A DNA stretch of 64,000 nt from a virus. Its lineage: Duplodnaviria > Heunggongvirae > Uroviricota > Caudoviricetes. Shown piece by piece: positions 428 through 63,964 of this stretch. The position numbers and the translations under genes are program-made. Location: positions 6,312-70,311 of IMG/VR virus record IMGVR_UViG_3300011904_000029. One strand, written 5' to 3'. Position 1 is the first letter of the stretch; every line of letters begins with the position of its first letter. The notes beneath the pieces are model-generated. The model made no database searches. It had not been told where the DNA came from and worked only from the letters and a program-made list of their open reading frames with translations.

Positions 428-933
428 TTATTAATCCTCCTTTCGTATGTAACGAATGAATAATCATAAGGGTGGTTTGCGTCTTTCTTGTGTTTTTCGT
501 GACTAGTAATCTTAAAATCATCTAAACTATATTTAGGAAAATATACGTCAGTATCGGAAAAACGATGTGAAACAATAGTTAGATAGATTTTATCTGTATG
601 TGGCAGAAATCTCTTATAGACCTGTTCCCCACCACACACGAATAATTCTGTATCTTTGTCGGCGTGATTGTAATAGTGTTGTAGGATTAATTCTGCTGAG
701 TTATATATGTAAAGATCTGGATGAAAATCAATGTCTCCGCTTTTTGATAAGATTAAATTTGTCCTGTTTGGTAAAGGTTTTCCGATTTCCTGGTATGTAC
801 GCCTTCCCATTACTATTACATTCTGTTCAGTTAAACTCTTAAACCTCTTCATGTCATTTGGTAAGCGAATTAATAATTTACCATTGTGCCCGATTGCAGC
901 GTTAAGATCACAGCAAGCTATGATATTAATCAA
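424..933 (-). CDS. folA: dihydrofolate reductase
   Basis: 169 aa; N-terminal IIACCDLNAAIGHNGKLLIRLPNDMKRFK and VIVMGRRTYQEIGKPLPNRTNLILSK match DHFR substrate/NADPH-binding motifs. Confidence 0.85.
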   Translation of the reverse strand: MINIIACCDLNAAIGHNGKLLIRLPNDMKRFKSLTEQNVIVMGRRTYQEIGKPLPNRTNLILSKSGDIDFHPDLYIYNSAELILQHYYNHADKDTELFVCGGEQVYKRFLPHTDKIYLTIVSHRFSDTDVYFPKYSLDDFKITSHEKHKKDANHPYDYSFVTYERRINK

Positions 934-7889: not shown

Positions 7890-8946
7890 CAAATTTGTTA
7901 CTACCTTATTAAAAGGCGGATAGGTCATTTCTGCCTATCTCTCTATGTCGCCATAGAGTTCAGACTATATCTTCTTGTGCGTGTGGTTATAAAAATTTAT
8001 TTTATATAATATGTATTTCTTTATTATGTAGTTCCATATGACATTCGAAGCATAATGTCTGTAAGTTTTCCTCTTTATTTGCTTCATTAATATCGTCAAA
8101 CTCCTCTATAGGAATTATGTGATGAACATTTAGTGCGTACTTTTCATAACTTTGAGTGTTGCAAATTTGACAAGTATAATTATCTTTTTTGACTTTTCTT
8201 TCTCGTATTCTTGACCACTTACTTCCATATCTATTTGGATTTTCTCTAGAAAACTGTCTATTTACACATCTATTTGAACAATATATTCTTTTATTTGACG
8301 GAACTGTAAAAGAAGGTCTTTCAAATTCCTTTTTGCAACAATAACATATTAATTTAATTGTATTTTGTTCGTTAGCAATATTGATACATTCTTGTGAGCA
8401 ATAGCTTATTTCTTTCCTATCTGCCCAAAACTCTTTATCACATACCTTACAGTTTAAATTATGTTTGTTTTTTCTACATAAATCAGAGCAATAATTACCG
8501 TCTTGTTGTATTCTCTGCTTAGCAATTTCAAACTCTTCTTTGCAATATTTACAATTAACTTTGACTTTTTTTGAGTTAATTGCTCCTAATTTAGCACTAC
8601 ACTTATGTGAGCATGTTCGTTTGGATCGCTCTCTTTTATTTTTTATATTTACTGTAAAAATGCTTTCACATATCTCACATTCCTTATCAACATATTCTTT
8701 TACTCTAGGTATTTATTATTCCTCCCTTGATCGCAACCACACGCACAAGTTTGGTTCGAGTTATAAAATTACTCTTATAACTACTTAGTCGTTGAACCTT
8801 CTACCTGGGAAACCAGGAAGCTCGGCTGCGAATTGCCCGCACTCTTGGGTTTTTAGGGTTCGCCGTGTCATTACTGCACGGTATCCTACCTTGAGATACT
8901 CGGGGTTCCCCGCAATTGACCAATTTTATACTCGGCTCATAAGTTA
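7890..8946 (-). mobile_element. group I intron interrupting nrdE, with embedded HNH endonuclease ORF
   Basis: exon 1 reads ...YVNQLG then stops; exon 2 resumes SRVAGIALYL (conserved YVNQxGxRxGAxAxYL block reconstituted); 5-prime exon end ACUCGGU pairs with internal guide GCCGAGU (U-G at splice site); intron ends with G; GC-rich structured core at 8760-8945. Confidence 0.7.
8002..8712 (-). CDS. intron-encoded HNH homing endonuclease with N-terminal zinc-ribbon repeats
   Basis: 236-codon open frame with C-terminal CQICN...HHIIP...NLQTLCFECHMELH HNH motif; preceded by GGGAGG RBS and TAATAA; no in-frame ATG/GTG/TTG near 5-prime end (first codon ATA). Confidence 0.65.
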   Translation of the reverse strand: MPRVKEYVDKECEICESIFTVNIKNKRERSKRTCSHKCSAKLGAINSKKVKVNCKYCKEEFEIAKQRIQQDGNYCSDLCRKNKHNLNCKVCDKEFWADRKEISYCSQECINIANEQNTIKLICYCCKKEFERPSFTVPSNKRIYCSNRCVNRQFSRENPNRYGSKWSRIRERKVKKDNYTCQICNTQSYEKYALNVHHIIPIEEFDDINEANKEENLQTLCFECHMELHNKEIHII

Positions 8947-9915
8947 ACCGAGTTGATTTACATATTCAGCTAGTACACTACTTAATCGTGATGGATGGAG
9001 AATTCCTGTTGCACGTCCTTTATATCCTCGAATCCATGAACCACTTGCGCGAAGGAACCCTAAATACTTCCCAATTCCTGCACCATTTTGACTAAATCTT
9101 GCTGTTTGTTCTAGGCTATTCATAATACTGATCAAATCATCATCAGGAGTAATAATGTGACATGATGACAATGTTCCGTGAGGCGCACCCGAACTCAGTA
9201 AAGTTGGTGTAGCTAATCCTACATAATGATTAGATAAAGCCCAATATGCTTCTTTTACTAACTCCATTCGCTTGGACTTCTTCTCATCTTTCATAAGATA
9301 GAGAGCAGAGGTTAAGAATCGCTCTTGTGGTAATTCTAAGACCTCGCCATTATAGCCCTTTTTAAGATAAGTATTGTTAAGCATGTAGAGTCCAGCATAG
9401 CTAAATTTTTTATCCTTTTCTTTTTCGATAAACTTTCCTGCTTTATTTAATTCTTTTTCAGTATATTGCTCCGTCAAGCTTTCATCATAAATGCCTTGCT
9501 CAACCATTTGAACAACAAAAGAGTAATAATCACCATAACCATTTTTATAATCAAAGCCCCTATTTTTAGACGCTTGCTTATACATCTTCCTCCTCAAAGT
9601 TGCTGCACTTAAATATGTGAAGTCTGGAGTTGACGGAGATATACAGTCATTTGAAAATCTAATAATCAAATCAAACAACTTGTCTGCCTCAAGTTTTTCC
9701 TTGGAATAAACGTAGTCGAATACATTTGCTCGGATTTTATTTAGAATATCTTTGTCGTATTCTTTCTCTGAATCTGTAATGATTTCATGGAAGAAGCGAT
9801 CAAACCTTTCTTCCATGAAATCTGATTCTTGAATGTGTGATTTTCTATCTTTAGTAATAACCGTCAAACAACTACACCCTTTCAGTCTTAAATTTGGTAA
9901 TAATTTATTTTGCAT
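8947..9915 (-). CDS. nrdE: ribonucleotide reductase class Ib alpha subunit, exon 1
   Basis: ATPTLLSSGAPHGTLSSCHII (radical-transfer Cys loop) and FTYLSAATLRRKMY; ends at 5-prime splice site. Confidence 0.85.
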
Positions 9916-11503: not shown

Positions 11504-11893
11504 TTACTTATCAATTTCCTCTGCTTTTAGTTGAAGGTAGTCCTGGAGCAAATCCCTCATTGCATCATCTTTTTCTGCCAAGATCTGATATAAATGAATA
11601 TCTTCCAACTCCTTCCTACGCTTGTCCATTTTTGATTTAATTTCTTTTAACTTTGCTTCTTTTTTAAGCCTTTCTTGATGCCTACTTTTATTAACTTTAT
11701 CAACAACCCATTTAAGCACATTAATTTTAGGATTAGCATTTACTTCTGTCACCTTCCCAAGCTGATAGCCTTGTACAGTATCTACAACTACTAAATCACC
11801 TATAGATAAATCTAAATCGTTCTTGAAGTAGTAGGTTTTTGCAGCAAATTTAAAATCTATATGAGTAATTCCAATAATGTTTGTCATAAGCAT
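11504..11893 (-). CDS. hypothetical protein
   Basis: 129-aa ORF with basic/coiled-coil C-terminus. Confidence 0.4.
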   Translation of the reverse strand: MLMTNIIGITHIDFKFAAKTYYFKNDLDLSIGDLVVVDTVQGYQLGKVTEVNANPKINVLKWVVDKVNKSRHQERLKKEAKLKEIKSKMDKRRKELEDIHLYQILAEKDDAMRDLLQDYLQLKAEEIDK

Positions 11894-13735: not shown

Positions 13736-14569
13736 TTAATTTAAGCTTATATTTAATTTACTTATGTACTCATTAATTAAATCTCCGACTCTACTAAATT
13801 CTGTGTATGGGATACGTAAAATTGAAATTCCATTTTCTTTGCAGAATGCATCTTTTCTATCATCTCTTTCTAAAACATAATCAAGAGTATTTTTAAAAAG
13901 CTCTCTTTCCTCGAAATGATGTATTCCATCATATTCAATAATAAACAAAACATTTCCATTTATATCATAAATTACAAAATCAAAGAACATTGATTCCCCA
14001 CTATTATTTTTATAATGAACCTCACGATCATATGTCACTCCTAAAGACTCCAAATGGTCAATCACTTCTTTTTCACCTAGAGAAAAATGACAATATTTAC
14101 ATCTTATGCCACTGCGTAAGTTACTAAGGAGCATTTCTGTCCTATGACCATTATTGCACACAACAGTCATTTTTTTGTGTGAGTTGACATATTCCCCTAT
14201 TCTCTTATATCCAATTGACTCAAGAAAACTGTCAACTTCCTTAATTGAAAATCTTTGTTGTACACTACTCTTTTGCAACCAACATTTTCTACATCTAACT
14301 CCTTTTAAAAAATGACTCCAATATATTTCAATTTCATGACCAGCGCTACACTTTACTTTTATTTTGGACTTAGAGTCCTTATAGCTATCTGATATAAGAA
14401 TATAATTTTCTTTTTCTAACTCCTCATTTATAAGATTAATACTCCAATTTGTTTTTCCTTTTCCATTCTTATCTTCTTTTTTGCAACTGGAGCACCTTCT
14501 TCCATTTTTATATTTTTGAAATGTCACTTTCCAATCATGCCCATAAGGGCATCTAACTATAATAGGCAC
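13736..14569 (-). CDS. zinc-ribbon / PD-(D/E)XK-like homing endonuclease paralog (family 2 of 3); annotated from GTG but frame stays open upstream to 14850
   Basis: 277 aa from GTG; C-terminal IEYDGIHHFEE...RDDRKDAFCKENGISILRIPY block shared with 930..2576 and 43898..45400; upstream in-frame extension encodes further CxxC...GH repeats. Confidence 0.5.
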   Translation of the reverse strand: MPIIVRCPYGHDWKVTFQKYKNGRRCSSCKKEDKNGKGKTNWSINLINEELEKENYILISDSYKDSKSKIKVKCSAGHEIEIYWSHFLKGVRCRKCWLQKSSVQQRFSIKEVDSFLESIGYKRIGEYVNSHKKMTVVCNNGHRTEMLLSNLRSGIRCKYCHFSLGEKEVIDHLESLGVTYDREVHYKNNSGESMFFDFVIYDINGNVLFIIEYDGIHHFEERELFKNTLDYVLERDDRKDAFCKENGISILRIPYTEFSRVGDLINEYISKLNISLN

Positions 14570-15671: not shown

Positions 15672-16916
15672 TTATTTAACATTTAATAGTTGCTGAAATA
15701 ATGCTTCACAAACATTAATAACTATACTATTACCAGTCATGCGATAGAGTCTTGTCTTTGACCTGTCTCTGCCTTTGTAAAACTTATCATTTACTGCTTT
15801 TCTTGCCACTTCGTAATCCCTATCAGTGAAACCCATTAGCCTAAACGCCTCCTTGTTGGTCATTTCCCTAATGAACAAATATTCTCCCTCTGCAATCAAG
15901 TCATCCTCACTCTTGACCAACTTGTATCCATCATCTATTTTTACGGCAAGCTTTAGTCCTTTTATTTGAGTTTTTGACACATTTTCTAATAACTCACTCA
16001 GTTCAATAGGATTTTTTTTATTAAAAATAGCTACCATAAAATCCTTAGTCACAGTCGTCACCGTATTACTTACGTCATCTTTTCTAATCTCCAGTTGTTG
16101 AGGCTGTCCCATATAGCTTCTTGTCCTTAAACTACAGCCCTTAACAATTCTTCTGTCCAAGACAACGTTATATGGAACCCCTTTAGACATATTGGCTGTT
16201 AAACATCTACTAGCATCATGGTCAGAGTCACTATGGTGCTCAAAATCCCAATGGGTTCTACCACCTTTTGTTTTTCTATTCATATACTCGATTGCTTTTT
16301 CAGTATGTATATGATTTTTTAATATATCTAAATCTGTTTCCAATTTATCTGAGAGTGATTTTTGATTAGGCATTGGCTCAGGGAAATCGAATCCTTTATC
16401 AATATCTTTACGAATACTAATCATAAAGATGCGCTCTCTATTTTGAGGAATTCCAAAATCACGAGCATTTAATATTTGCCAGTAGTTGTTATATCCTGCT
16501 TTTTCTAATTCCTCTTGCATTTCTTTAAACTCATTTTCAAACTTTTTACTTGTTAGTCCTTTTACATTTTCCATTAATGCATATTTTGGACTCTTAGCTC
16601 GGATAATTCTGAGAGCATCAAAAAACAATATCCCTCTATGATCATCAAACCCCAATTGTTTACCAGCTGCCGACCATGATTGACATGGTGGAGAGTAGCA
16701 AATAACATCGCAATCCGGTACATCTTCAATGTTTAATGTAGTTATATCCGTAGCAGGAAAATTTGTATTATGTATTGAATTATAGGCGGTAATCGCAAAT
16801 TCATCATTTTCAACTGCTAAAACTGTTTCATGTTCTATATTAAGATTTTCAAGTGATTTTTTCCAGGCTCCTATTCCTGCAAATAATTCAACTACTTTTA
16901 ATTTACCAATAAGAAA
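15672..16916 (-). CDS. DNA (cytosine-5)-methyltransferase (full-length frame; 5-prime end lacks canonical start / apparent frameshift)
   Basis: open frame encodes motif I VELFAGIGAW, motif IV CYSPPCQSWS, motif VI ENV (ALMENVKGL), motif VIII QNRERIFMI; ORF-track call 15672..16655 starts after motif IV at an internal TTG. Confidence 0.75.
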   Translation of the reverse strand, partial: FLIGKLKVVELFAGIGAWKKSLENLNIEHETVLAVENDEFAITAYNSIHNTNFPATDITTLNIEDVPDCDVICYSPPCQSWSAAGKQLGFDDHRGILFFDALRIIRAKSPKYALMENVKGLTSKKFENEFKEMQEELEKAGYNNYWQILNARDFGIPQNRERIFMISIRKDIDKGFDFPEPMPNQKSLSDKLETDLDILKNHIHTEKAIEYMNRKTKGGRTHWDFEHHSDSDHDASRCLTANMSKGVPYNVVLDRRIVKGCSLRTRSYMGQPQQLEIRKDDVSNTVTTVTKDFMVAIFNKKNPIELSELLENVSKTQIKGLKLAVKIDDGYKLVKSEDDLIAEGEYLFIREMTNKEAFRLMGFTDRDYEVARKAVNDKFYKGRDRSKTRLYRMTGNSIVINVCEALFQQLLNVK

Positions 16917-16930
16917 TCATCTCCATAATT

Positions 16931-16959
16931 ATTATAATATATTTATTTTAGTTCAATAA
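16931..16959 (-). promoter_or_regulatory. possible promoter TTATTG-17-TATAAT immediately upstream of methyltransferase gene
   Basis: minus strand TTATTGaactaAAATAAATatatTATAAT, -10 only 4 nt from ATG at 16926. Confidence 0.3.
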
Positions 16960-17058
16960 AAATTTATTTTATAAATCTACGAGTAATCCCTTGTAATCTA
17001 AGATAAAATAAAACTCTTCTTTTATCGGTATCTCCATACTGTGCAACTCATCTTATTC

Positions 17059-33430: not shown

Positions 33431-33812
33431 TTATTTTATCCTTTAGGCTTTTGGGCAATTTGCTATTAATTTTTCTTATTCGCTTATCTCTGTTCATCAT
33501 CCAATCTTGTATCTCCATAGTTTCAAAATAGTCATTGGCATTTGGTATGAAGCCCAAATCTTCTAATATATGTTGCTCTCCAACATATCTAGTAAAAACA
33601 GTCCTACCATCAGAATTTATAAAAGACTCTCCAAAAATTTTTGCGCATTCAAAAATACCTTCTGAATGATGTCTCATGGCTCGATGTCTCATATCTGGAA
33701 TCCAAGCTTTTGTTACATCAAACCAATTATGGATTTCAATATAGTCTTTTGGCTGGCCTCCAAATCTTCTTGCAGAACTTTTAGCATGAATTTCTGGGTG
33801 TGACATTATCAC
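33423..33812 (-). CDS. hypothetical protein
   Basis: 129-aa ORF. Confidence 0.4.
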   Translation of the reverse strand: MIMSHPEIHAKSSARRFGGQPKDYIEIHNWFDVTKAWIPDMRHRAMRHHSEGIFECAKIFGESFINSDGRTVFTRYVGEQHILEDLGFIPNANDYFETMEIQDWMMNRDKRIRKINSKLPKSLKDKINV

Positions 33813-34425
33813 TCATCTCCTTTTTTACTATTATATGCTTCCAAGTCATACCGTTTTTAATTTGATAAAGCATAGATGGGGTAATATCGTGCTTTTTTCT
33901 TATCTCTTTGCTGCTAGCTCCGTTGAATATCATATTTTTTATGTCTATAACTTGTTCAGTAGTTAGTCTTGCCGTTGGATTATTCTCGCCTCTCGCTTTT
34001 TTACTTAGCATTTCCCTGTTTTCTTTTGTGTGAGTTTTCCCGTAAAAACTGTTATTTTCCCCAGCTTGAGATTTTCTTATTTTCTCTTTTGATTCTTTTG
34101 AGTGCTTATAATCAAGTAGCGAATATGAATTTGGTGCTAAATTGTATTTGTTCTTTATTTTGTCAAGAAAGTATTGCTCTCTTTGACTAAGCTCATCTTT
34201 ATCTTTAACTTCTTCGAGTATTTCGAATGTAAATGATGATTCGCCAAATTGATCAAAGTCTTGTTGAAGCGATCCGTTATGATGAACCCCTTTCCTCAAT
34301 GCCCACCTATGAGTTAACCATCTTTCATATGTGTCTACCGTGCTTCCTATGTAAACCATGTTATTTTCTTTGCATATAATTTGATATATTCCTAGTTTTC
34401 TCTCTGCTTTTTTAGTGATTGGCAT
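33781..34425 (-). CDS. GIY-YIG homing endonuclease (I-TevI-like, with NUMOD-type linker repeats and C-terminal HTH)
   Basis: 214 aa; GIYQIICKENNMVYIGST...YERW GIY-YIG core; repeated KxxxGExNxxYGKTH modules. Confidence 0.75.
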   Translation of the reverse strand: MPITKKAERKLGIYQIICKENNMVYIGSTVDTYERWLTHRWALRKGVHHNGSLQQDFDQFGESSFTFEILEEVKDKDELSQREQYFLDKIKNKYNLAPNSYSLLDYKHSKESKEKIRKSQAGENNSFYGKTHTKENREMLSKKARGENNPTARLTTEQVIDIKNMIFNGASSKEIRKKHDITPSMLYQIKNGMTWKHIIVKKEMSDNVTPRNSC

Positions 34426-37376: not shown

Positions 37377-37577
37377 TTAGTCTTCATCATAATTAAAAAA
37401 TTTATGTCCAGTATATCCTTTAAAAAATAGCTTCTTTTTAGGGTGGTCTGAGCACTCAGCATCAAAGAATATTCCGCCAGTTTTAATTAGCTCACAAGTC
37501 GAACACTCTGGCTCATGAACTTTTGTTCCGTTCATATAGTCCTCAGAACGCTCCATGATAATCTCTTCAATTGGCAA
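37377..37577 (-). CDS. hypothetical Cys-rich protein
   Basis: 66-aa ORF. Confidence 0.35.
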   Translation of the reverse strand: MPIEEIIMERSEDYMNGTKVHEPECSTCELIKTGGIFFDAECSDHPKKKLFFKGYTGHKFFNYDED

Positions 37578-40465: not shown

Positions 40466-40798
40466 TTATGATGATGCTGCTTTAAGTGAATAAGAAGTGT
40501 TTAATGACACCCCTTCACTTTGTGGCAACTTAACTCCTAGTGTTTCCAATAAAAACTTTCTCATAATATTCTTTTCAGTCTTATGTAAATCAAATCCAGA
40601 ATCATCAAAACCATAATCAATCTCTTCTACTGGGTGCATTGTTATTTTATTTTGTATAAAATCTATATGTGTGTAGACATAATGCTTACTATCGACAAAT
40701 CCTCTAGTGATAAACTTAACTGGTATAATTGCAACTAACTCCTCTTCGTCCCATTCTTCAATGTAATCAAAAAATTCCTTCTCTAAGTTGATTTTCAA
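40466..40798 (-). CDS. hypothetical protein
   Basis: 110-aa ORF. Confidence 0.4.
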   Translation of the reverse strand: MKINLEKEFFDYIEEWDEEELVAIIPVKFITRGFVDSKHYVYTHIDFIQNKITMHPVEEIDYGFDDSGFDLHKTEKNIMRKFLLETLGVKLPQSEGVSLNTSYSLKAASS

Positions 40799-40957
40799 GA
40801 CAATATCCCCTTTTTCATTTATTTTTCTCTAGCCCATCAAACAGCAATTAAATTATTTCTCCTTTCTTTAATATCAAAAAACAGAACGAATGTTCCCTTT
40901 AATTATATGGCTTGTTCTGTTTTTATGCAACAGTCAAAGTTTTAATATTTTTATCTA

Positions 40958-41022: not shown

Positions 41023-41235
41023 ATGAAAAAGATAGAAGTCGGAAAGTGCTTACTTCCTGAACTTTTGTATGAGCGTAAAATGACACAAGTTGATCTTGAA
41101 ACTAAAACCGGAATTGATCGTAGACAAATTAATTCCTATATCAAAGGTCATAGGAGGATGTCTCTAGTTAATGCGAAAATTATTGCTACCGCATTAAAGT
41201 GTGTCATTGATGACTTATACGAGTGGAAAGGGTAA
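41023..41235 (+). CDS. XRE-family helix-turn-helix transcriptional regulator (YopS-like position)
   Basis: 70 aa; LLYERKMTQVDLETKTGIDRRQINSYIKGHRRMSLVNAKIIATAL is a classic Cro/CI-type HTH; divergent from the repressor-like operon. Confidence 0.65.
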   Translation: MKKIEVGKCLLPELLYERKMTQVDLETKTGIDRRQINSYIKGHRRMSLVNAKIIATALKCVIDDLYEWKG

Positions 41236-41466
41236 GTACGGTGGCTGAATGCCACTGGTTGCTAATCATCGAAAACGATGATTTAACACTACCTTTTTCC
41301 TATAAATTATACAACGCTTATATAGTATTTACTATATAAAATTCCAAATTATACTAGTTATTGTTCGTTGTACAATTTATACAAAAACCACTTCATATAT
41401 TTATTTAATTTTTATGTATAAATCTTAACCTATTCTATACAGTAGGTCAAGATTTAGAAGCATATA

Positions 41467-42462
41467 TTACCCATATAATTTTTCGACATTTTTTTCATTT
41501 ACAAACTGTTTTATATATGCCGTATTGTAATAAGTGTAGTCCTTCACAGTTATGGGGCTTAAATTGTACTTAATTGCTATCTTTTCAAATTCTTCATATT
41601 CGATTTCATTTGAGAACCCTTTTTCTTTTTTATCTTGAAGCAGCTTATATGCCATATAAATCATCCCTGATCTTGTCAATGACTTTGGTGTTATATCTTG
41701 AAAGTCGAAAAGTTCCGCAATCATTTTTATTCTATTCAATATTGTTATCTGACTAACTCTTTCTCCTTCCTTAACTCTGCCTCTTCTAACGTTTTTAATT
41801 ACATAATCACTCTCAACGATCTGAGAAGTTGAAAATCTCCCTTCTTCAACTGTTCCATTCCTGTTTAAATATTCATCATTACTATAATGAGCCTGTCTTA
41901 TTAACTCAATAACATCGTCTTCAAAATAGACAAATCTTTCTCCTTTTACATCATCATATAATCTCACTTTCCCAGTTTCTTCTTCTACATCAGCCCATCT
42001 TAAGTTTCTTAACTCACTGCTCTCTGTGCCATAAACTCCCTCAAATAATAAACGTAAAACCACTCTATCTTGAATATTTACTAAGTTGTTATATATATAA
42101 TCGAGTTCCTGTTTTGAAATAAACTGCTTAATGTCTTTATCAATAAACTGTCTATACCATTCTCTGTCTAAATTCTGCATAGGATGAATGTTGCTTGTTC
42201 GTAAATTATTCTTAATAGCCCACGCTATATATTGTGAAATAAAATTTCCTCTTGTTACTGCTACATTTAACGATTTGGGGTTTGAGTTAGCAATTACAGA
42301 ACCAATTTGATCTAGTGAAAAATCATACAAATCTTTCCCTAAAGGGACTTCATTCCCATAGGCATAATAAAAAATATACTCTACAACGTTTCTTGTCGTT
42401 TCACTATCATAGGCATCATTTAAAAATCTTTTTTTGATATCTTCATTATACATTTTATGCAT
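41467..42462 (-). CDS. tyrosine-recombinase-fold protein with degenerate active site (YopR-like repressor candidate)
   Basis: 331 aa; box I-like VLRLLFEGVYGTESSELRNLRWADV retained but box II reads SLTRSG (His replaced by Ser). Confidence 0.45.
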   Translation of the reverse strand: MHKMYNEDIKKRFLNDAYDSETTRNVVEYIFYYAYGNEVPLGKDLYDFSLDQIGSVIANSNPKSLNVAVTRGNFISQYIAWAIKNNLRTSNIHPMQNLDREWYRQFIDKDIKQFISKQELDYIYNNLVNIQDRVVLRLLFEGVYGTESSELRNLRWADVEEETGKVRLYDDVKGERFVYFEDDVIELIRQAHYSNDEYLNRNGTVEEGRFSTSQIVESDYVIKNVRRGRVKEGERVSQITILNRIKMIAELFDFQDITPKSLTRSGMIYMAYKLLQDKKEKGFSNEIEYEEFEKIAIKYNLSPITVKDYTYYNTAYIKQFVNEKNVEKLYG

Positions 42463-42463
42463 A

Positions 42464-43828
42464 CTAAGATTTCACCATACCCTTTACGTCTATTTCTTTA
42501 AAGTAATTTGCAATATTTTTTCTTAATTGATTTGTGTCTCTTTCAATATTACCTTTCTCATTTAACACACCAATATCTTTCCATAATGGATTGTCTTTTG
42601 AGAAATCAATGCTCTTTACAACCTTTCTGATTTCTTTTGCTTTTATATCAGATTCATACATACGTCTTGCTATGACAATATATCCCACAAACACGTTATT
42701 GTCATTAATCAATGAATTCTTTCTTGTTTCTTCAACTTTAAAAATAAACTCGTCTTGATAAGACCCAATTAGCATATTGAAAAATTCAACAAGAAAATCT
42801 CCTACATCCGCTGCGTCTGCACGGGTATTCATGATAAATTCTTGATCTATTGTATCTGCCAACACGTTATACGAAACTAATTCGTTTGCAATTGTTCTTA
42901 CTCTATTCGTTTGAGAAATCCTACCCTCTAGATCGCTTTCCGTCTTAAGCTGCTGAACAACACTGTCCGAGTACCTTTTCGATTCCCACTCTTGAACTCT
43001 TACGGTAGAGATAGGGGTAGCTTTTGCTACCTGAGCCTGTTCAGCTCTAAATTTCTTTTTTGTAAAATTACTTATGACAACAATGAAGTCATGCTGAATA
43101 TCTTTGTTGTTCATCAAAGCGTTTCTAATGGCAGTAATTCTGTGAAACCCATCACCAATCGCAAGTTCAGTTCCTTTATTTATCTGTAATGTCTGATGCG
43201 TGGGATCATACTCTAATTCATTTCCGGTTTCACTACTTCTTACTAACGCATTCCAAACTAATGGAGGAGTTGTTTTTGCTAATGTTCCATTGATGAGATG
43301 TTGCTCAATTTCTCTTACATTTGTCATCATCAACTTTGGCTTTTTTCTTACTGTCCCATCTTTGCCCTTCACTAATACAGCCTCTCTTTGTAATTCGTAA
43401 TCGTAAATTAATAATTGATTTTCAACTAACTCATTAATAGTATGCATATCGATCCTTACAGAAAATACGCCATCTCCCTCTACTCTAGCGTTTTTCAAAA
43501 CTATAGGAAAGTCAACTTCTTCACGATAGACAGATGCATCATATGTTTTTGCTATATCTTTTTCAACATCAGTAAAATAATCACTTGGATTTATATTATA
43601 AGTAACGCCGCATTTTGCGTAAATCTGCTCAGTAATTAAATATAACTCCCTAATATCTAAATTAGATAGCGATTCTTTCGCATTACTGATCCATGTTTGA
43701 ACTTCTCCAGCTAATATATTGTGTTTGCTTACTAAGTGTAATTTAATATCATTAATAATTTTCTTATCTCTTTTAATAGCTTGGATAGCTTGAGTAAGAT
43801 TTTCTTCTAATAACTCTCTATCATTCAT
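42464..43828 (-). CDS. DGQHR-domain (DndB/ParB-like nuclease superfamily) protein
   Basis: 454 aa; motif ELAIGDGFHRITAIRNAL corresponds to the DGQHR signature of DndB-like proteins. Confidence 0.5.
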   Translation of the reverse strand: MNDRELLEENLTQAIQAIKRDKKIINDIKLHLVSKHNILAGEVQTWISNAKESLSNLDIRELYLITEQIYAKCGVTYNINPSDYFTDVEKDIAKTYDASVYREEVDFPIVLKNARVEGDGVFSVRIDMHTINELVENQLLIYDYELQREAVLVKGKDGTVRKKPKLMMTNVREIEQHLINGTLAKTTPPLVWNALVRSSETGNELEYDPTHQTLQINKGTELAIGDGFHRITAIRNALMNNKDIQHDFIVVISNFTKKKFRAEQAQVAKATPISTVRVQEWESKRYSDSVVQQLKTESDLEGRISQTNRVRTIANELVSYNVLADTIDQEFIMNTRADAADVGDFLVEFFNMLIGSYQDEFIFKVEETRKNSLINDNNVFVGYIVIARRMYESDIKAKEIRKVVKSIDFSKDNPLWKDIGVLNEKGNIERDTNQLRKNIANYFKEIDVKGMVKS

Positions 43829-43897: not shown

Positions 43898-45400
43898 TTA
43901 CCCAATTTGATCATAGTCTTCTTTATACATCCATCTGTATCCACCAGCTGATTTTCGGCGACCTTGGCAAACTAGTGATATTCCATTAGCACTTTTCATA
44001 TTTAAATGCTTTCTTGCTTTTCCCATACTTTCCCATGATTTGATAAATCTTCCATCATGTGTCAGCTGAACAATTTCTTTTGATTTTATTAGCGCCCCTG
44101 TATTTTTCTTTGAATCATAATCACACCAACCGATTTTGGCTCCCTGTTTTAAGAATTTAATTGCTGTATTTCTTCCTATATTAAGTGTTTTAGATATCTT
44201 TAATGAGCACCTTACTCCCATATTCCATAAATCACTTGCATCTTTTACTAATGTTGAACAAGCAAATTCGTGACACTTTAACCACTCAATATTGGAAAAA
44301 TTGATTAGATTTATAATATCGCTATTTAGAATACCTACTTTTATCCAGTCTATATTTGAATATCTACAATCCAATACAATATAATTAGCAATTCCGTTTT
44401 CTTTAGCTAATTCTTTTTTTAATTTGTCGTTCTTTTTAACTTCAATTAGGCTACCTCCTTTAAATCCTTCTTCATAATGCTGTAACCCATGTGTCTCTAT
44501 TATCATATTTAAATCAGGAATATAAAAGTCATACCTCTTATATCCAACAATATCCTCATCTTTAAGTTTTACATTTTTTGACCAACTAAATATTTTCTGT
44601 GTTTCAAATTCCATGTTTAATTGCATGAATATGCCAATAACGAATTTTTCTGGATAACTAAATCCATCAGAACATCTTGAGCAGCTAAATCCTTGATTGA
44701 CAACATTATCTATAAATTTCATTTCTGAGTTACTACATTTTGGACAAGTAAACCTTAGTTTTCTTTGACTCCCTTTAGATACTTCATATCCTATGCGGGG
44801 ATCAGATAAAAGACTCGCTACATCAGGATTAGTCGCCCATAGGCAATTCGTATGATTTACTTTTTTTCCAGTACAATATGGGCAATTATTACCATTAACT
44901 TTATTAGCTATTGTCATGGAATATTCACTTTTGCATAATAAACAATTCCACTTATACTTGATTCCAGAAGACTTAAATATCTTGTCTGGCGTACAATCAT
45001 TTTTATTACTAAACTCAAGCAATATATAGTTTTTATTATTTTCTTTTACCCAATATTCTAAAGTGTGTTCATACGACATAATTTCTCTTTTAGTTATTTC
45101 GGCTTTTATACTACCACATCTTCTACACCTATCAATTCCATCTCCAGCTTGTCGACTTGAGATAATTTTAGAATAACTTTGATTCTTAATCACCTCATTA
45201 CAGTCATCACAAATCTTAGTAACCTTTACATTAGAATTTTTAGGTAGATCGCTGACGCTTATTAGTATTTTTGTATTAGGTGGAACTGTTAGTCTTCCTT
45301 GATTATTTTTACGTCTTGGTATGTGATACCCCAATAATTCATAATATTTATCAGTTTTTAATCCACATCTTACCCATATTTCTTTCTCTAATATAGCCAA
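43898..45400 (-). CDS. zinc-ribbon / PD-(D/E)XK-like homing endonuclease paralog (family 3 of 3) with C-terminal NUMOD1-like DNA-binding tail
   Basis: 500 aa; CxxC...GH repeats; YDFYIPDLNMIIETHGLQHYEE...KENGIANYIVLD nuclease block; C-terminal ...SAGGYRWMYKEDY. Confidence 0.55.
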   Translation of the reverse strand: MAILEKEIWVRCGLKTDKYYELLGYHIPRRKNNQGRLTVPPNTKILISVSDLPKNSNVKVTKICDDCNEVIKNQSYSKIISSRQAGDGIDRCRRCGSIKAEITKREIMSYEHTLEYWVKENNKNYILLEFSNKNDCTPDKIFKSSGIKYKWNCLLCKSEYSMTIANKVNGNNCPYCTGKKVNHTNCLWATNPDVASLLSDPRIGYEVSKGSQRKLRFTCPKCSNSEMKFIDNVVNQGFSCSRCSDGFSYPEKFVIGIFMQLNMEFETQKIFSWSKNVKLKDEDIVGYKRYDFYIPDLNMIIETHGLQHYEEGFKGGSLIEVKKNDKLKKELAKENGIANYIVLDCRYSNIDWIKVGILNSDIINLINFSNIEWLKCHEFACSTLVKDASDLWNMGVRCSLKISKTLNIGRNTAIKFLKQGAKIGWCDYDSKKNTGALIKSKEIVQLTHDGRFIKSWESMGKARKHLNMKSANGISLVCQGRRKSAGGYRWMYKEDYDQIG

Positions 45401-45424: not shown

Positions 45425-46465
45425 TCAGTCGCCTAATTGTGTCATTTCTTTTAGTTTTAAATTTAACAATAATATTTGATCCTTAGTAAGAGATGAAATG
45501 CCTTTCAACAACTCTTCATGAGAAACTTTTTTAAATAATTGATCATCAATATCACCCTTGCTAGACACAGCTCCCAATACACCCAAATCACGTTCGCCAA
45601 TATATATCAGCAGATTCTCCATATTCTTATGTCCAGAAGCCTTTTTTGCTTGTAGTAAGTCATTTGTCAAGCGATACTGGAACGTTACTCCGGCTTTACG
45701 AAATGAATGGAAGACCACATTTCTCTTATCTTCAAATTTTAATTGCCTTTTTATATAATTCATCATACTTTGAATTGAGGTATCACTTATATCAAATACT
45801 TTATTTGTACCTGATTCATTTTTTATTTGAACTAATTCTTCATAAAACTCTTTAGAGATTCTTAAATTCCTCTCTTCATTCCCCTTATCAACTGCCCTAA
45901 TCTCAACCTCATCATCATGTAAAATAAAATCATCCCAAGTCAAATTTAATAATGCACTTTTACGTAGGCATGTATCCATTGCAGTAAGGATTAGATAATA
46001 TTTTGTTAGACGCTTTCTACCTCTAGGTTGATTTTTTACTAGTTCTGCTGCCTGAAAAACCTCCTCAACTGTTAACACTCCATGATGATTTTTTCCTTCC
46101 TTAAGCCTATCTGCCTCATCAAATGCTGCCAGATTTTCTATATAACCTCTTCTATATAGCTGTCCATAAAATTGATTAACCGTTGAAATTTTCCTGTTTA
46201 TAGATTTATTTAATAATCCTCTGTCATTCTTTAGATAAATTTGAAACTTTACTATATCATCATCATTTAATTTAACATCATTTTTATTTAAAAATTCAAT
46301 TTCTTTTTTAGCTTTAAACTTAAAAAAATCTCTAATGTCGCTATCATAAGCTTCTCTTGTTTTTAGACTCTCACTTCTCATTGTTTTCTTTTCTAAGAAT
46401 AATATGATCTGTTCGTATATTTCTGATCGATTAATTTCAACGACCTCAGCCAACATTATAACCAC
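45425..46465 (-). CDS. tyrosine recombinase / integrase-family protein (catalytic residues intact)
   Basis: 346 aa; box I AMDTCLRKSALLNLTWDDF, box II VVFHSFRKAGVTFQYRL, GHKNMENLLIYIGE with candidate Tyr nucleophile. Confidence 0.65.
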   Translation of the reverse strand: MVIMLAEVVEINRSEIYEQIILFLEKKTMRSESLKTREAYDSDIRDFFKFKAKKEIEFLNKNDVKLNDDDIVKFQIYLKNDRGLLNKSINRKISTVNQFYGQLYRRGYIENLAAFDEADRLKEGKNHHGVLTVEEVFQAAELVKNQPRGRKRLTKYYLILTAMDTCLRKSALLNLTWDDFILHDDEVEIRAVDKGNEERNLRISKEFYEELVQIKNESGTNKVFDISDTSIQSMMNYIKRQLKFEDKRNVVFHSFRKAGVTFQYRLTNDLLQAKKASGHKNMENLLIYIGERDLGVLGAVSSKGDIDDQLFKKVSHEELLKGISSLTKDQILLLNLKLKEMTQLGD

Positions 46466-46682
46466 TCCTTAATAATTTAATTCCTTCTCAAGAATCATTA
46501 CAATATTCTTTGCTTCCCTATAAAGCCTTTGTTTGTCCTTTTTAGTCCATTTCTTAAGGTTTCTCTTTATGTATCCAAACGTATTTGACGACACTTCTCC
46601 CATCCTCTCCATTCATTATATATTATTATGTTCAAAAGTACAAATTATAACTATTATATAAATTTATTTATCTTTAGTTCTT

Positions 46683-50953: not shown

Positions 50954-51307
50954 CTAAGACAATTTCACATCAATAATTTTTTCTATTGAAATCTTCTCAG
51001 ATTTACCATTCAATACTATATGCAATTTCTTTTCAATATGGTCATACTTGTTAATATGGCACTTCTTCTCAGTAATGCTTCCCAAATGATAAACGGACAA
51101 GTATACAGGAACATAGTCTTCAATAGCAATTGTCAACAAATCATTTATCTCCATCCATTTTTGCTCATCTAAAATTGGCTTATTAATCAGCTTTTTATTA
51201 GAATTATGGGAAATGATTTTCTCTGTATGTTCAGGCAACATCATCCTACTTGATTCCCACCTTAGATTTTGATTTTTTGTTAATTTATTGATTTTCATTG
51301 CAATCAT
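50954..51307 (-). CDS. YolD-like protein (accessory to Y-family polymerase)
   Basis: 117-aa ORF immediately downstream of and co-oriented with the Y-family polymerase gene. Confidence 0.45.
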   Translation of the reverse strand: MIAMKINKLTKNQNLRWESSRMMLPEHTEKIISHNSNKKLINKPILDEQKWMEINDLLTIAIEDYVPVYLSVYHLGSITEKKCHINKYDHIEKKLHIVLNGKSEKISIEKIIDVKLS

Positions 51308-51310
51308 CCT

Positions 51311-52546
51311 TTATTTATAGTGACCACCAATTTTTGAAGCTCTTTCGGATGCTTGACCTGCTTTAGTTAATGACGATGCCCTATATAATGCTGTACGTCC
51401 GTATTTATCCCAAATTTCATCTAGTGCTGTATTCAGTTGCTCCCTATATGAATAGTTATCAAATAAATCAATCTGGTAGTTGTCTGCTGGCTGTAAGTTA
51501 GAAATACTCACACCTAAACTGCGTATTGGCTCTTTATTCCAAAACTTTAACAGTAATTTATAAGCTGCATTAAAAATATCTAGATCATAATTTGTTGGCA
51601 CTGATAAAGTAACTTGTCGATTAAATCCGGTTGGAAAATCAAAATCCGCACCTCTAACGCCACAAGAAATTGTTGTTCCCATGTATCCTTTCTTTCTACA
51701 TCTTCTAGCTACTTCAGTACATAGTTCTAATAGTACAACCTTAATTTCATCTAAATCCATATAATCTCTGGGCAAAGTCATATGATGGCCAACTGCTTTT
51801 TGTTGATTGTGCGTCTTAACAGTGACTGGCGAATAGTCGATACCGTTGGCTGTCTGCCATAATACCTCTCCATTAATGCCCCATCTTTTCTTCAGCAATT
51901 CAACTGGAAATTTAGCCAGTCCTCCAATTGTAAAGATGCCCATCCCGTTTAAATTACGTTTCATTCGTTTGCCTACACCAAACATTTTTTCTACTGGCAG
52001 CTTCCATAACTGGTCAATGTTGTTTTGATCTAGACGGAATATGCCTTCTTTGTTCTTTTTAGCAAAGTTATCACAAGCCATTTTTGCTAATATCTTATTT
52101 GATCCTATACCTACTCTGGCATATACTCCAGTATCATATAATATTTTTTCCTGAACTTTTTTAGCTATTTCAAACTGATTACCAAATAACTTTTGACTAC
52201 CAGTTACATCCATAAATTGTTCATCAATACTAAACTGCTCAACTAAATCAGTAAACTCTTCCATAATTTTGCTAATTTGCATAGAAACATTAATATATAA
52301 CTGCATATGAGGTTTAACTACCTCAACATTAGGACATTTCAATAAAGCAGATCCCAATGTTTCGGCTGTTGTGATGCCAAATTTCTTTGCAATTGGACAT
52401 GCAGCTAGGACTATGCCACTTCTACGCTCAGGGTCTCCCGCAACAATAACAGGCTTATCCTTTAATGAGTTATTATTAACTTTTTCAACTGAAGCATAGA
52501 ATGATTGCATATCAACTAAGAAAATCACTTTTTCTGCCAATGACAA
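51311..52546 (-). CDS. Y-family translesion DNA polymerase (UmuC/UvrX-like)
   Basis: 411 aa; N-terminal VIFLVDMQSFYASVE, FSIDEQFMDVTG, GVGKRMKRNLNGMGIFTIG motifs. Confidence 0.85.
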   Translation of the reverse strand: MSLAEKVIFLVDMQSFYASVEKVNNNSLKDKPVIVAGDPERRSGIVLAACPIAKKFGITTAETLGSALLKCPNVEVVKPHMQLYINVSMQISKIMEEFTDLVEQFSIDEQFMDVTGSQKLFGNQFEIAKKVQEKILYDTGVYARVGIGSNKILAKMACDNFAKKNKEGIFRLDQNNIDQLWKLPVEKMFGVGKRMKRNLNGMGIFTIGGLAKFPVELLKKRWGINGEVLWQTANGIDYSPVTVKTHNQQKAVGHHMTLPRDYMDLDEIKVVLLELCTEVARRCRKKGYMGTTISCGVRGADFDFPTGFNRQVTLSVPTNYDLDIFNAAYKLLLKFWNKEPIRSLGVSISNLQPADNYQIDLFDNYSYREQLNTALDEIWDKYGRTALYRASSLTKAGQASERASKIGGHYK

Positions 52547-52562
52547 TCACCTCAATTAATAA

Positions 52563-52574
52563 GAACGTTCGTTC
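52563..52574 (-). promoter_or_regulatory. LexA (Cheo) box GAACN4GTTC downstream of polY promoter
   Basis: GAACGTTCGTTC exactly fits GAAC-N4-GTTC; second near-match AAACACTTGTTC at 52590-52601 inside spacer of TTGCAT-18-TATAAT promoter (52581-52610). Confidence 0.55.
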
Positions 52575-55325: not shown

Positions 55326-55673
55326 TTATAACCCCTCTGCCATCCCCAGGCTTACCATAATAGCATTATCAACTTTATTCATTGTGAATTGATCCAAGGC
55401 GGTTATTTTGCCTTCTAATCGCTTCTTATCAATGGTTCTTATCTGCTCTAATAATACCACGGAATCTTTAGAAAGACCGTATCTTTTAGCATCTAATTCA
55501 ACATGAGTAGGCATCTTCGCTTTTTGTATTTGACTAGTCACAGCAGCAACAACGGTTGTTGGACTATAGTGGTTCCCAATATTATTTTGAATTACGAGTA
55601 CAGGTCTATATCCACCTTGTTCACTTCCTCTTGTAGGACTTAGATCTGCGAAGTAAATGTCACCTCTTTTCAC
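55326..55673 (-). CDS. mazF: MazF/EndoA (PemK-family) mRNA interferase toxin
   Basis: 115 aa from GTG; [66 protein letters not shown]... closely matches the Bacillus EndoA sequence as recalled. Confidence 0.85.
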
Positions 55674-61006: not shown

Positions 61007-63964
61007 TTAAACTACCTTCTGAGTATTCCATTGAATGTAGCTTTTGCCTTCTTCATCTTTTTCTTTAATTAGAAGCATGTTTAAAATATCAAAATCAACT
61101 CCAAACCTTTCTAAGATTTCATCATCATCTATGGAATCATTTTTCATAAAGTTGTTTAGTTTCTCTTTATTCATAATCAACTTAAGTAAATTAGACTCAA
61201 TACTGTTTCTAATTGTTAAAAAGTGTATTTCTTTTTGCTCTGTAGAGGTATATCTTATAAACCTTGCAAAAAACTGATGCATTGCTGCAAAGTTCCATTG
61301 TAGCTCAATAAGTAATACACGGTTCACAAAATCAATATTCATGCTGCTTGATAAAGATTGTTGAGTACAAATAAGTATTCCATTTTTTGTTTCTTTTAGT
61401 TTCTTTATTATCTCTTTTCTCTTGCTCAATGTTGTGCTGTCACCAGTAATTATAAACAATGGCCTTTCAGGGAATTTGTTTTTAATATAACTTGCATACA
61501 TATTAACTGTTTTAATGTGAGTACACCCTATTACAACATGCTCGTTATCCCATTCATGAAGCATATTAACCATTTCAATTGCTTTGGAAGGTGTTTGACT
61601 TGAATAGTAATCTTTAAAGATATTAGGTGTTACACATGCTTTTAACAGGCTGTTAAGTTGTTGTATAATCCTCAACAAAGCATCTTTTCTGCTGTTCCCT
61701 GTTGATCTGTACATATGAGTGAGTTTATAGAATTCTTCAATTACAATTCTATAAAGTTCTTTTTCAGCATGGTTAAACTCTGTTGTTTTCTGTATGATTT
61801 TATAAATATTCTTGCCGCTAACCTCTTCAAATGTTCGAGTTATCATTGTTTTATTAATTAGTTCGCTTAATTCTTCACTGTTATATATATCTTGATTCAT
61901 TTTCCCTACACCAAATACTGTTGCTTTCTCCGGTGAAAATGATCTTTTAAAATGTGTATGGCCTTTCTTATATGCAGGAAACGGCCACATATAAAATTTA
62001 TTAAATTCCTCCTTAATCTCTTTTGTCTTTTTATCCTCAATAAATATAATGTCATTCTTTGACAGCATATTAACTGAATTATTATAGAGCAATTCAAATG
62101 CTGTAAACGATTCTGGAATGTTATTTCTGGTACTTGTAGCACTCATAAGCAATTTAAACTTAACTCTTCTAAAACAGTTTAAAATGGCCTTTGTACGTTT
62201 AGATGATGGATTACAAATACCATCTGCTTCATCTAGTACCAACATAACTTTTTGACTTTGCATTTTTACAAACTTTTTAATTTGCTTTTGATATTTAGTT
62301 ATCATTCCAAAAGTCATAATTACTATTTGTCCATGTTTAATATTGTCAATATCTTTAAGTGATTTGATCCTAATAAAATCTATATCGTATGCCTTTAGAA
62401 TTTCGTCCCAATTGTTATTAATTGCAATTGCAGGTGCAATAAGGAATATATTTCTAATGCTGTTATGCTGCTTTCTATATAACATCTGTGCAATGGCCGA
62501 TAAACTTTTCCCTGCTCCTGTTCCCCATTGCAGATAACCATAATTTTTAGATAGCATTTTTATTGTATCTTCTTTTTGAATATTATTTAGTTTAATCTCC
62601 TGGCTATTTTCTTTATCATAAATCACCAAGTTTTCAAGAAAAGATTTTATTTTTTCGTCTTGTTTTATATTTTTAAATGAGCAATTCTGCTTCTGATATT
62701 CCTTGCTTTTCTTTTCAAATAATTTTATATACTTATGATCTTGAAAAGGATAGTTATCATTAATAATCATGTCATTAAAGCTTATCTCTTTGACTCCATT
62801 ATATGATTTTAAAAATTTTCTCTCCTTTGTGCTGTATGCTTTTAGCTTCAGACCATAGCGATTTTTTACAAGTCTTGTTATATGAACTTCTGGTTTTTTA
62901 TGCTGCTTTTTTAAAGTGTTTTTAAGATACCGAATAACTTTGTTTTTTGTTATCCTTACTTTCTGCCATTCCTCATAAGTCATTCCCTCTGGCTGCTCTT
63001 GTGTATAATACCTATTCAAATAGGCTTCACATTTAGAATAGTATTTATTGATTTTCGGATTACTCTTGATATCAAATAACAACTTATTTACTTTATAATG
63101 AAATTCATTTTCATCTTTATTTTGTGACATTGTTTCAAGAATAATTTTATTTTTAACTTGCTGCTTTTCATCAAGAATTGGTTTTATGTAATTGTTATAA
63201 ATATAATTTGATTCTGATTCAATTATTTCTAGCGATTTTATAGTATTGCTTTTATATGGCCTCTCTGTTACATGTTCGCTCTTTTTCTGGAAAAACATAA
63301 TCTTTGTTTCAAAATTATTGACCCCGACATGATTAAATGAGTCTGAAGGCAAAGTGAATTGTGACACAAAATTGAACATCTTATTAATCTCTGTTATCAT
63401 TCCACCGTCTACAAAGTCATCGCTTAGAAAGGATCTAGGTACAATTAATGCCATGATCCCACCAGGTTTTAATACTTCATATGATTTAATACAATAATAC
63501 AGTTGACTTAAATATTCATCATTTCCAACATCCCATTTTAAATTAAATGGTGGATTCCCTAAAACAATGTCAAACTGGATATCAGTTTTATAATTTCTAA
63601 TATCTTGATTTGTTATATTTGCATGTGGATATAAGTATTTTGAAACTTTATAAGCCTTTATATCTAATTCATTGCCATATACATTTAACTCGTTTGGAAG
63701 ATAGTTAAAAAAGTTACCCATCCCACTTGTTAAATCAATAATTAAATCATGCTCATTAGGTTTTAAACAGTCTATAAGAAATTTAGAAATTGTATGAGAT
63801 GTAAAGAATTGACCATTTTCTAATTCCTTTTTGGCTTCTGTATAATCATGAAAAGATGAATAGTCTTTAAAATCTAACCCATGCAGCCCACCATCACCAG
63901 TATAAGAATTAAATATATCCTCTTTTGAAATATTGTGTTGATCACATAAGTTATTATCAATCAA
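61007..63964 (-). CDS. N6-adenine DNA methyltransferase fused to SF2 (DEAD-box-type) helicase
   Basis: 985 aa; N-terminal amino-MTase motifs FFTSHTISKFLID, DLTSGMGNFF (motif I) and NPPFN (motif IV); C-terminal helicase motifs GTGAGKS (Walker A), LVLDEAD (motif II), LMSATS (motif III). Confidence 0.75.
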   Translation of the reverse strand: MIDNNLCDQHNISKEDIFNSYTGDGGLHGLDFKDYSSFHDYTEAKKELENGQFFTSHTISKFLIDCLKPNEHDLIIDLTSGMGNFFNYLPNELNVYGNELDIKAYKVSKYLYPHANITNQDIRNYKTDIQFDIVLGNPPFNLKWDVGNDEYLSQLYYCIKSYEVLKPGGIMALIVPRSFLSDDFVDGGMITEINKMFNFVSQFTLPSDSFNHVGVNNFETKIMFFQKKSEHVTERPYKSNTIKSLEIIESESNYIYNNYIKPILDEKQQVKNKIILETMSQNKDENEFHYKVNKLLFDIKSNPKINKYYSKCEAYLNRYYTQEQPEGMTYEEWQKVRITKNKVIRYLKNTLKKQHKKPEVHITRLVKNRYGLKLKAYSTKERKFLKSYNGVKEISFNDMIINDNYPFQDHKYIKLFEKKSKEYQKQNCSFKNIKQDEKIKSFLENLVIYDKENSQEIKLNNIQKEDTIKMLSKNYGYLQWGTGAGKSLSAIAQMLYRKQHNSIRNIFLIAPAIAINNNWDEILKAYDIDFIRIKSLKDIDNIKHGQIVIMTFGMITKYQKQIKKFVKMQSQKVMLVLDEADGICNPSSKRTKAILNCFRRVKFKLLMSATSTRNNIPESFTAFELLYNNSVNMLSKNDIIFIEDKKTKEIKEEFNKFYMWPFPAYKKGHTHFKRSFSPEKATVFGVGKMNQDIYNSEELSELINKTMITRTFEEVSGKNIYKIIQKTTEFNHAEKELYRIVIEEFYKLTHMYRSTGNSRKDALLRIIQQLNSLLKACVTPNIFKDYYSSQTPSKAIEMVNMLHEWDNEHVVIGCTHIKTVNMYASYIKNKFPERPLFIITGDSTTLSKRKEIIKKLKETKNGILICTQQSLSSSMNIDFVNRVLLIELQWNFAAMHQFFARFIRYTSTEQKEIHFLTIRNSIESNLLKLIMNKEKLNNFMKNDSIDDDEILERFGVDFDILNMLLIKEKDEEGKSYIQWNTQKVV

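Follow-up and report, generated by a model that had tools for sequence, protein, structure and literature searches.

The sroE-like gene and its neighbors

The 64,000-nucleotide (nt) stretch of viral DNA analyzed here (the window; positions 6,312 to 70,311 of the Caudoviricetes record IMGVR_UViG_3300011904_000029) carries on its minus strand, at 42464..43828, an ATG-started open reading frame (ORF) of 454 amino acids that is very probably the counterpart of SroE, known as YopQ in phage SPbeta, with a role in lysogeny control. The coordinates of this ORF are exact, a Shine-Dalgarno sequence (GAGGTG) lies 7 nt 5′ of its ATG, and alignments to its homologs begin at residue 1 with coverage of 98-100%. 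Because the homologs cover the protein from its first residue, the start codon is supported and the gene model is sound. BLASTP aligned the product with SPbeta YopQ at 28% identity over 444 residues (E 2e-47), and tblastn found both phi3T (E 3e-46) and SPbeta (E 2e-36) at the same 28% identity. All 36 tblastn matches in phage records were to large SPbeta-like phages, with hosts in Bacillus, Geobacillus, Psychrobacillus, Staphylococcus, Mammaliicoccus and Clostridioides, the best of them being Psychrobacillus phage Perkons at 48%. The window belongs to contig DAMDKB010000005.1 (assembly GCA_032100165.1), and megablast of the 24 kb around the gene gave no match in the phage collection.

A reading made earlier from the sequence alone had placed the gene in a putative repressor operon, and its neighbors bear this out: a homolog of the integrase-fold master repressor gene sroF (mrpR, yopR) begins 1 nt downstream and a homolog of sroD (yopP) lies upstream (Table 1). 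The sroF product shares 33% identity with SPbeta YopR/MrpR (E 2e-32) and contains both MrpR domains (Pfam PF22822 and PF22823). Since the sroE stop and the sroF ATG are separated by a single nucleotide (TAG-T-ATG), the two genes are likely to be translationally coupled. The sroD product is 30% identical to YopP (E 1e-29), and the yopS-like gene beyond sroF encodes a protein 43% identical to SPbeta YopS (E 7e-18), the gene for which occupies the same position. Gene order and orientation are those of yopP-yopQ-yopR with convergent yopS in SPbeta. In the pairwise alignment with YopP, the sroD product retains an HxxR element (HSFRKAG) where the SPbeta protein reads HSFKGVG, and it may therefore keep more of the tyrosine-recombinase catalytic set.

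Related loci were collected from genomes and metagenomes, and their neighboring genes were re-detected by tblastn or taken from precomputed Pfam annotation. The 16 independent loci, at 28-62% identity, comprised Robertmurraya (L001 and L006 represent one and the same locus), SPbeta, Perkons, Sporosarcina, Bacillus sp. T33-2, Cytobacillus, Fictibacillus, Virgibacillus, Bacillus sp. FJAT-22090, Brevibacillus, three short Heyndrickxia fragments and three metagenomic contigs (38-39% identity). In 14 of the 14 loci with downstream DNA, an MrpR-type gene lay directly 3′ (within 100 nt or overlapping), and in all 15 with upstream DNA a recombinase-fold gene lay 5′, such that the SroE-like gene stood between two recombinase-fold genes in each of the 13 loci with DNA on both sides. 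Of 10 locus comparisons, 7 showed stronger conservation of SroE than of SroF.

Genes for DNA modification of the dnd or dpd type were absent from the Pfam-annotated flanks of L001 (±8 kb) and of three distant relatives, L017-L019 (±6 kb). Pfam annotation of the window, by our own scans or precomputed, covered 32 of 32 ORFs of at least 150 residues; no dnd or dpd family was among them, in agreement with the sequence-only reading, and the modification genes seen were solely one C5 and one N6 methyltransferase. The lack of such partners is understandable, because the conserved linkage of the gene is to a repressor instead. A partition ParB, which that reading had named as the outcome that would overturn it, was also considered and rated low: no ParA/CbiA-type ATPase family was present among the scanned window ORFs, and no recurrent centromere-like (parS-like) repeat was found in the window.

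Family assignment, conserved residues and predicted fold

The Pfam DndB model (PF14072) matched residues 159-440 of the sroE homolog with 42.3 bits against a gathering score of 29.1 (E 6.6e-11), far beyond chance, and both the ORF and the motif IGDGFHRITAIRNAL to which the sequence-only reading drew attention are real. Comparison with DndB and DGQHR profiles, which that reading had proposed as a check, nevertheless gave a divided answer. While the Pfam domain scored above its threshold, the NCBIfam DndB equivalog TIGR03233 reached 19.4 bits against a cut-off of 328 and the NCBIfam DGQHR domain TIGR03187 reached 18.5 bits against 58.85, and the position of the glutamine in DGQHR is taken by F228. 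The proposed membership of a DndB/DpdB-like branch of the ParB superfamily therefore holds for the broad Pfam domain and for the fold (the DndB-like/DUF262 branch), whereas the specific DGQHR/DndB signature does not hold. The PADLOC DndB model also gave a weak match (E 2e-5). The TIGR03233 match begins at residue 213 of the protein, as compared with position 97 of the profile; this implies approximately 100 extra N-terminal residues relative to DndB, in agreement with the extra helical domain of the structural model described below.

The protein matched PHROG 5732, of unknown function, over residues 2-448 (E 6e-101). A word-indexed search returned 141 homologs; when 1.84 billion representatives were searched exhaustively with a profile, 1303 clusters at 50% identity were returned (E up to 1e-3), 1137 of them below 1e-10; among the best 150 of the 1303 clusters, length was nearly always 430-460 residues. 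The family thus has a sharp boundary and shows no gradual transition to the DndB superfamily at large. Many homologs bear the automatic name 'DNA sulfur modification protein DndB', which is misleading for this family. One homologous cluster of 540 residues (P0072, 16 member sequences) combines the DndB domain with an I-HmuI NUMOD-like domain, which could represent a fusion or a mis-called junction with a neighboring homing-endonuclease remnant.

In a 52-sequence alignment, the fully invariant columns are Q147, R148, N193, D226, G227, H229 and R230. A wider census found DGxHR in 263 of 268 collected family sequences, as DGFHR (120), DGYHR (79), DGWHR (34), DGMHR (17), DGAHR (9) and four single variants; the third residue is thus aromatic in 233 of the 263 motif-bearing members, and DGQHR occurs in none of them. 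The commonest spacing between the QR pair and DGxHR is 76 residues (120 of 263). On the basis of these alignments, the family signature is DG[F/Y/W]HR plus invariant QR and N.

An AlphaFold2 model built on the 52-sequence alignment (mean predicted local distance difference test score 89, predicted template modeling score 0.56) consists of a helical N-terminal domain (residues ~1-101), a central alpha/beta domain (~105-270) and a helical C-terminal domain (~275-454). The central domain of this predicted model has the ParB-N/Srx fold at the superfamily level, with modest fold matches to PadC, KorB, sulfiredoxin and DUF262 proteins. Foldseek against BFVD returned DndB-like, DUF262/GmrSD-N and ParB/Spo0J proteins; against the PDB it returned no significant match, and neither the protein nor the family profile found anything but noise among PDB sequences. 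The DGxHR element is presumably the counterpart of GCHR in sulfiredoxin and of the phosphate-binding motif GERR in ParB. If so, the retention of H229 and R230 would fit retained nucleotide binding.

Regulatory elements, the inserted endonuclease gene and other window genes

Table 1. Features of the sro-like locus and associated candidate elements (positions in the window).
Feature	Position	Strand	Description
SOS-box-like GAAC-N4-GTTC	37517-37528		near start of small gene
Candidate Sar-type antirepressor ORF	40466..40798	-	110 residues, one gene downstream of sroF; candidate by position and SOS box only
SOS-box-like GAACGAATGTTC	40884..40895		promoter region of 110-residue ORF
yopS-like Xre-family helix-turn-helix (HTH) gene	41023..41235	+	70 residues, convergent with sroF; Pfam HTH_26, HTH_3
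sroF/mrpR/yopR homolog	41467..42462	-	331 residues, integrase-fold master repressor; Pfam MrpR_N_CB (E 5.7e-25), MrpR_C_cat (E 5.1e-23)
sroE/yopQ homolog	42464..43828	-	454 residues; predicted helical N-domain, ParB/sulfiredoxin-like core, helical C-domain
Motif IGDGFHRITAIRNAL	43115..43159	-	residues 224-238 of sroE homolog; F228 at 'Q' position of DGQHR
Q147-R148 pair	43385..43390	-	invariant; ~76-79 residues upstream of DGxHR motif
Homing-endonuclease-like gene	43898..45400	-	500 residues, between sroD and sroE; zinc-ribbon DUF4379/CapR repeats
sroD/yopP homolog	45425..46465	-	346 residues, tyrosine-recombinase fold; Pfam Phage_integrase E 6.4e-10, SAM-like N-terminal domain
47-residue ORF	46469..46612	-	adjoins sroD on upstream side; possibly first operon gene
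Candidate operon promoter TTGAAT-16-TG-TATAAT	46710-46683		upstream of 47-residue ORF; consensus match only
Terminator-like hairpin	46768-46748		upstream of 47-residue ORF; consensus match only
SOS-box-like GAAC-N4-GTTC	52563-52574		before Y-family polymerase/YolD pair at 50954-52546

Promoter matches were not enriched over shuffles in this AT-rich window, and the operon promoter listed in Table 1 is a candidate only. Exact 12-15-mers recurred in the window at most 4 times, with no operator-like pattern, and intergenic 11-mers allowing one mismatch yielded Shine-Dalgarno sequences only, plus one coding-sequence artefact. In a dyad scan, TTGTA-N7-TACAA was found twice, one copy being between sroF and yopS, against 0.77 expected and is not enriched. 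As side observations, a near-palindrome, TTGTACAATTTATACAA, at 41368-41384 between sroF and the yopS-like gene resembles the TTGTAATGCATTACAA palindrome upstream of SPbeta yopM, and the second TTGTA-N7-TACAA lies at 11771-11787, inside a 292-bp intergenic region. The window contains 3 copies of the LexA/SOS-box-like sequence GAAC-N4-GTTC, where 0.36 would be expected, and 0 of 100 shuffles contained as many as 3. The 110-residue ORF that follows one of these boxes has the position of sar/yopT, which encodes the SOS-controlled antirepressor Sar in phi3T and SPbeta; it showed no similarity to YopT and no PHROG match.

The 500-residue protein encoded between sroD and sroE matches Pfam DUF4379 (E 7.5e-18), with a CapR-like match just under its cut-off, and its C-terminus weakly resembles an I-HmuI NUMOD-like domain, below the threshold of that model (E 0.011; 15.7 bits, cut-off 27); its PHROG matches are 4538, 559 (HNH endonuclease) and 9084 (homing endonuclease). 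It has no match in the other related loci searched by tblastn, in which sroD and sroE are separated by a short spacer (e.g. 51 nt in L001); the gene tables of L017-L019 likewise list no gene between sroD and sroE. This endonuclease-like gene is not part of the ancestral operon. A distant paralog (27% identity), a DUF4379/CapR protein of 548 residues, is encoded at 930-2576 (minus strand) between the genes for dihydrofolate reductase and thymidylate synthase, and two further mobile-endonuclease-like proteins are encoded on the minus strand at 13736-14569 (277 residues, CapR plus DUF2726) and 33781-34425 (GIY-YIG plus NUMOD3).

Other products of window ORFs of at least 150 residues are dihydrofolate reductase, thymidylate synthase, ribonucleotide reductase, guanylate kinase, a family-A DNA polymerase, RecJ, primase, a DnaB-like helicase, a Y-family polymerase with YolD, a ligase, the C5 and N6 methyltransferases and a number of proteins that resemble homing endonucleases. 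Ribonucleotide reductase has its large subunit divided over two minus-strand ORFs, 6489-7928 and 8944-9915, approximately 1 kb apart, which suggests an interruption of the intron or intein type. The C5 cytosine DNA methyltransferase ORF (15672-16655, minus strand) matches its Pfam profile from position 82 onward only and is preceded by 403 bp with no called gene (16656-17058); this gene may be split, interrupted or N-terminally truncated. An ORF of 985 residues at 61007-63964 (minus strand), which ends near the window edge, encodes a DEAD/ResIII helicase fused with an N6 DNA methyltransferase domain. A MazF/PemK toxin homolog (Pfam E 9e-37) is encoded at 55326-55673 (minus strand), with no obvious MazE-like ORF directly upstream, where a 125-bp gap is followed by a 124-residue ORF assigned to no family. 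The arbitrium effector AimX of phi3T targets host MazF (PMC10769878), and in view of this link a phage-borne MazF in a relative that lacks AimR may merit a look.

Role of the SroE-like protein and comparison with known systems

SroE and SroF are said, in a 2023 study of SroE, to be two master repressors that bind multiple sites of the phage genome, with SroD as an auxiliary repressor. YopQ was described as a protein with a ParB_N_Srx domain encoded in the yopM-yopR operon (PMC8612738), which has been renamed the 'SPbeta phages repressor operon', sroABCDEF (PMC10769878). The yopQ gene is a core gene of SPbeta-like phages and is transcribed in the lysogen along with yopR (Kohm et al., 10.1101/2021.11.22.469490). 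Experiments with SPbeta and phi3T have identified SroE as a second repressor that is needed to establish lysogeny (10.1101/2025.11.27.690993). MrpR no longer functions as a recombinase but serves as a repressor, and extra factors were suggested in the MrpR study as the source of its specificity in vivo.

We propose, as the probable reading of the locus, that the gene encodes the SroE counterpart of an SPbeta-like temperate phage or prophage, where it would form a repression module with SroF and SroD; its role as a repressor is taken from the SPbeta and phi3T literature. The host would be a low-GC, Bacillaceae-type bacterium. In this phage, sroE would share a transcript with sroF, the gene of the integrase-fold master repressor, and would probably be coupled to it in translation, while SroD, the recombinase-fold auxiliary protein, would be encoded ahead of SroE, and the three proteins together would set up and keep lysogeny. 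The DndB-like ParB/sulfiredoxin core, with its QR...N...DGxHR residues, would bind DNA, a nucleotide may modulate this binding as it does for DndB, and the phage promoters would be occupied by SroE jointly with SroF or in parallel to it. In its present setting the protein appears to be unrelated to phosphorothioate or 7-deazaguanine modification. The sequence-only reading had left the function of the gene open. By sequence and position, its role may now be assigned to lysogeny control.

Several observations weigh against this proposal. Identity to the two characterized proteins is only ~28%, and function is transferred over a long distance. A repeated operator like SPBRE was sought in the window and none was found beyond chance. 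Upstream of sroE, the operon is broken by the 1.5-kb endonuclease gene, with a possible effect on sroE expression. Deletion of yopQ from the SPbeta prophage did not cause induction and gave translucent colonies, which argues against an indispensable role in maintenance (10.1101/2021.11.22.469490), and the manner in which SroE fits into the regulatory model, stabilizing SroF on DNA or modulating other regulators, has been called unclear (10.1101/2025.11.27.690993). In addition, in contrast to the arbitrium phages that served for the work on SroE, the window showed no tblastn match to SPbeta AimR and no Pfam AimR among ORFs of at least 300 residues, although the same SPbeta query does detect the AimR of L001 at 32% identity; nor was an AimP found in the window. 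In Robertmurraya (L001), the closest named relative (62% identity), genes for AimR and a 47-residue peptide lie 3.7 kb upstream of sroD, while no AimR was found within 6 kb in the distant relatives L017-L019. Because AimR is missing from the window and from these three neighborhoods, the sroD-sroE-sroF trio is not confined to arbitrium phages.

The foremost alternative departs from our proposal in mechanism alone and leaves the lysogeny role unchanged. SroE may be a cofactor that keeps monomeric SroF stably on DNA or tunes a different regulator, much as KorB does with KorA or as an accessory clamp does. The constant adjacency of sroE and sroF, the stronger conservation of SroE in most locus comparisons and the extra factors suggested for MrpR specificity in vivo would all fit this possibility, which we regard as tentative. 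Against it, both SroE and SroF are reported in the 2023 study to bind several genomic sites of the phage. DndB, the nearest characterized relative, binds DNA directly, which also speaks against it. A more elaborate and doubtful reading would make sroD-sroE-sroF a self-contained, arbitrium-independent lysogeny module, in which SroE serves as a nucleotide-gated ParB-fold clamp or loader, recruited by or licensing monomeric SroF, and extends repression from a few sites across a phage genome of ~130 kb, as a phage counterpart of KorB-KorA long-range silencing, with the family-wide change from glutamine to an aromatic residue reflecting an altered nucleotide pocket.

It is quite improbable that SroE is a DNA-architectural accessory factor that helps the tyrosine-recombinase-fold proteins on either side to carry out site-specific recombination, rather than a transcription factor: its constant place between two recombinase-fold genes and the HxxR element kept by SroD of the window would suit such a part, but MrpR is devoid of recombinase function and works as a repressor. 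An equally slim chance attaches to a prophage-borne nuclease of the ParB/DUF262 type or a nucleotide-dependent defense or exclusion protein (of the GmrSD, BrxU or SspE kind), as the core is not followed by a nuclease domain, HNH/DUF1524 or other, the C-terminal half consists of helices and lies within the DndB profile, and strict linkage to a repressor gene together with expression in lysogens fits regulation. Finally, a true DndB or DpdB component that regulates or senses phosphorothioate or 7-deazaguanine modification, as the Pfam and PADLOC matches and the automatic names of homologs might lead one to expect, is largely refuted by context and the least credible of these alternatives, considering the wide misses of both NCBIfam models, the absence of the glutamine from every motif-bearing member, and the fact that no dndA/C/D/E or dpd/queuosine-pathway family was found among window ORFs of at least 150 residues or in the annotated flanks of L001 and L017-L019.

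The gene is a divergent member of the already known SroE/YopQ family and will be no surprise to a specialist. Our analysis corrects the annotation of a family of more than 1000 clusters at 50% identity, many members of which carry the misleading DndB name that could make a prophage repressor gene pass for a phosphorothioation or defense gene. It also indicates that the SroD-SroE-SroF module, here without AimR, reaches well beyond the Bacillus subtilis arbitrium phages that defined it. The aromatic DGxHR signature and the invariant QR and N point to residues worth mutating, and divergent natural variants of SroE offer useful comparison material for studies of its mechanism.

Three known systems provide a frame for the protein. 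It has no detectable sequence similarity to solved ParB proteins such as the ParB-CTPase-fold regulators KorB, Noc and PadC, from which it differs in domain order, in its C-terminal domain and in having no ParA partner or parS-like repeat that we could find. With DndB/DptB, the regulator of dndBCDE phosphorothioation, it has in common the Pfam domain and a ParB/sulfiredoxin-like core followed by a helical region. It differs from DndB in its poor fit to the two NCBIfam models, in the phenylalanine that replaces glutamine, in its longer N-terminus and in its surroundings, where dnd genes are missing nearby and the partner is an integrase-fold repressor gene. DndB has been described as a ParB-like transcriptional repressor that depends on ATP, and ATP and GTP are both bound by a DndB-like protein (PMC12704722); as DndB is itself a DNA-binding protein, the mode of action of the sroE homolog may well resemble it. 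The closest parallel is YopQ/SroE of SPbeta, with its counterpart in the phi3T_92-97 operon of phi3T. Relative to SPbeta, no yopM, yopN or yopO homolog was detected in the window, no aimR/aimP pair lies upstream, and a homing-endonuclease-like gene splits sroD from sroE. Nevertheless, the two proteins are similar over their full length (460 residues in SPbeta, 454 here) and have in common the DG[aromatic]HR motif, as DGYHR in YopQ and DGFHR in the window protein, and both genes occupy the same place between a yopP-like and a yopR-like gene, with a convergent yopS-like gene downstream.

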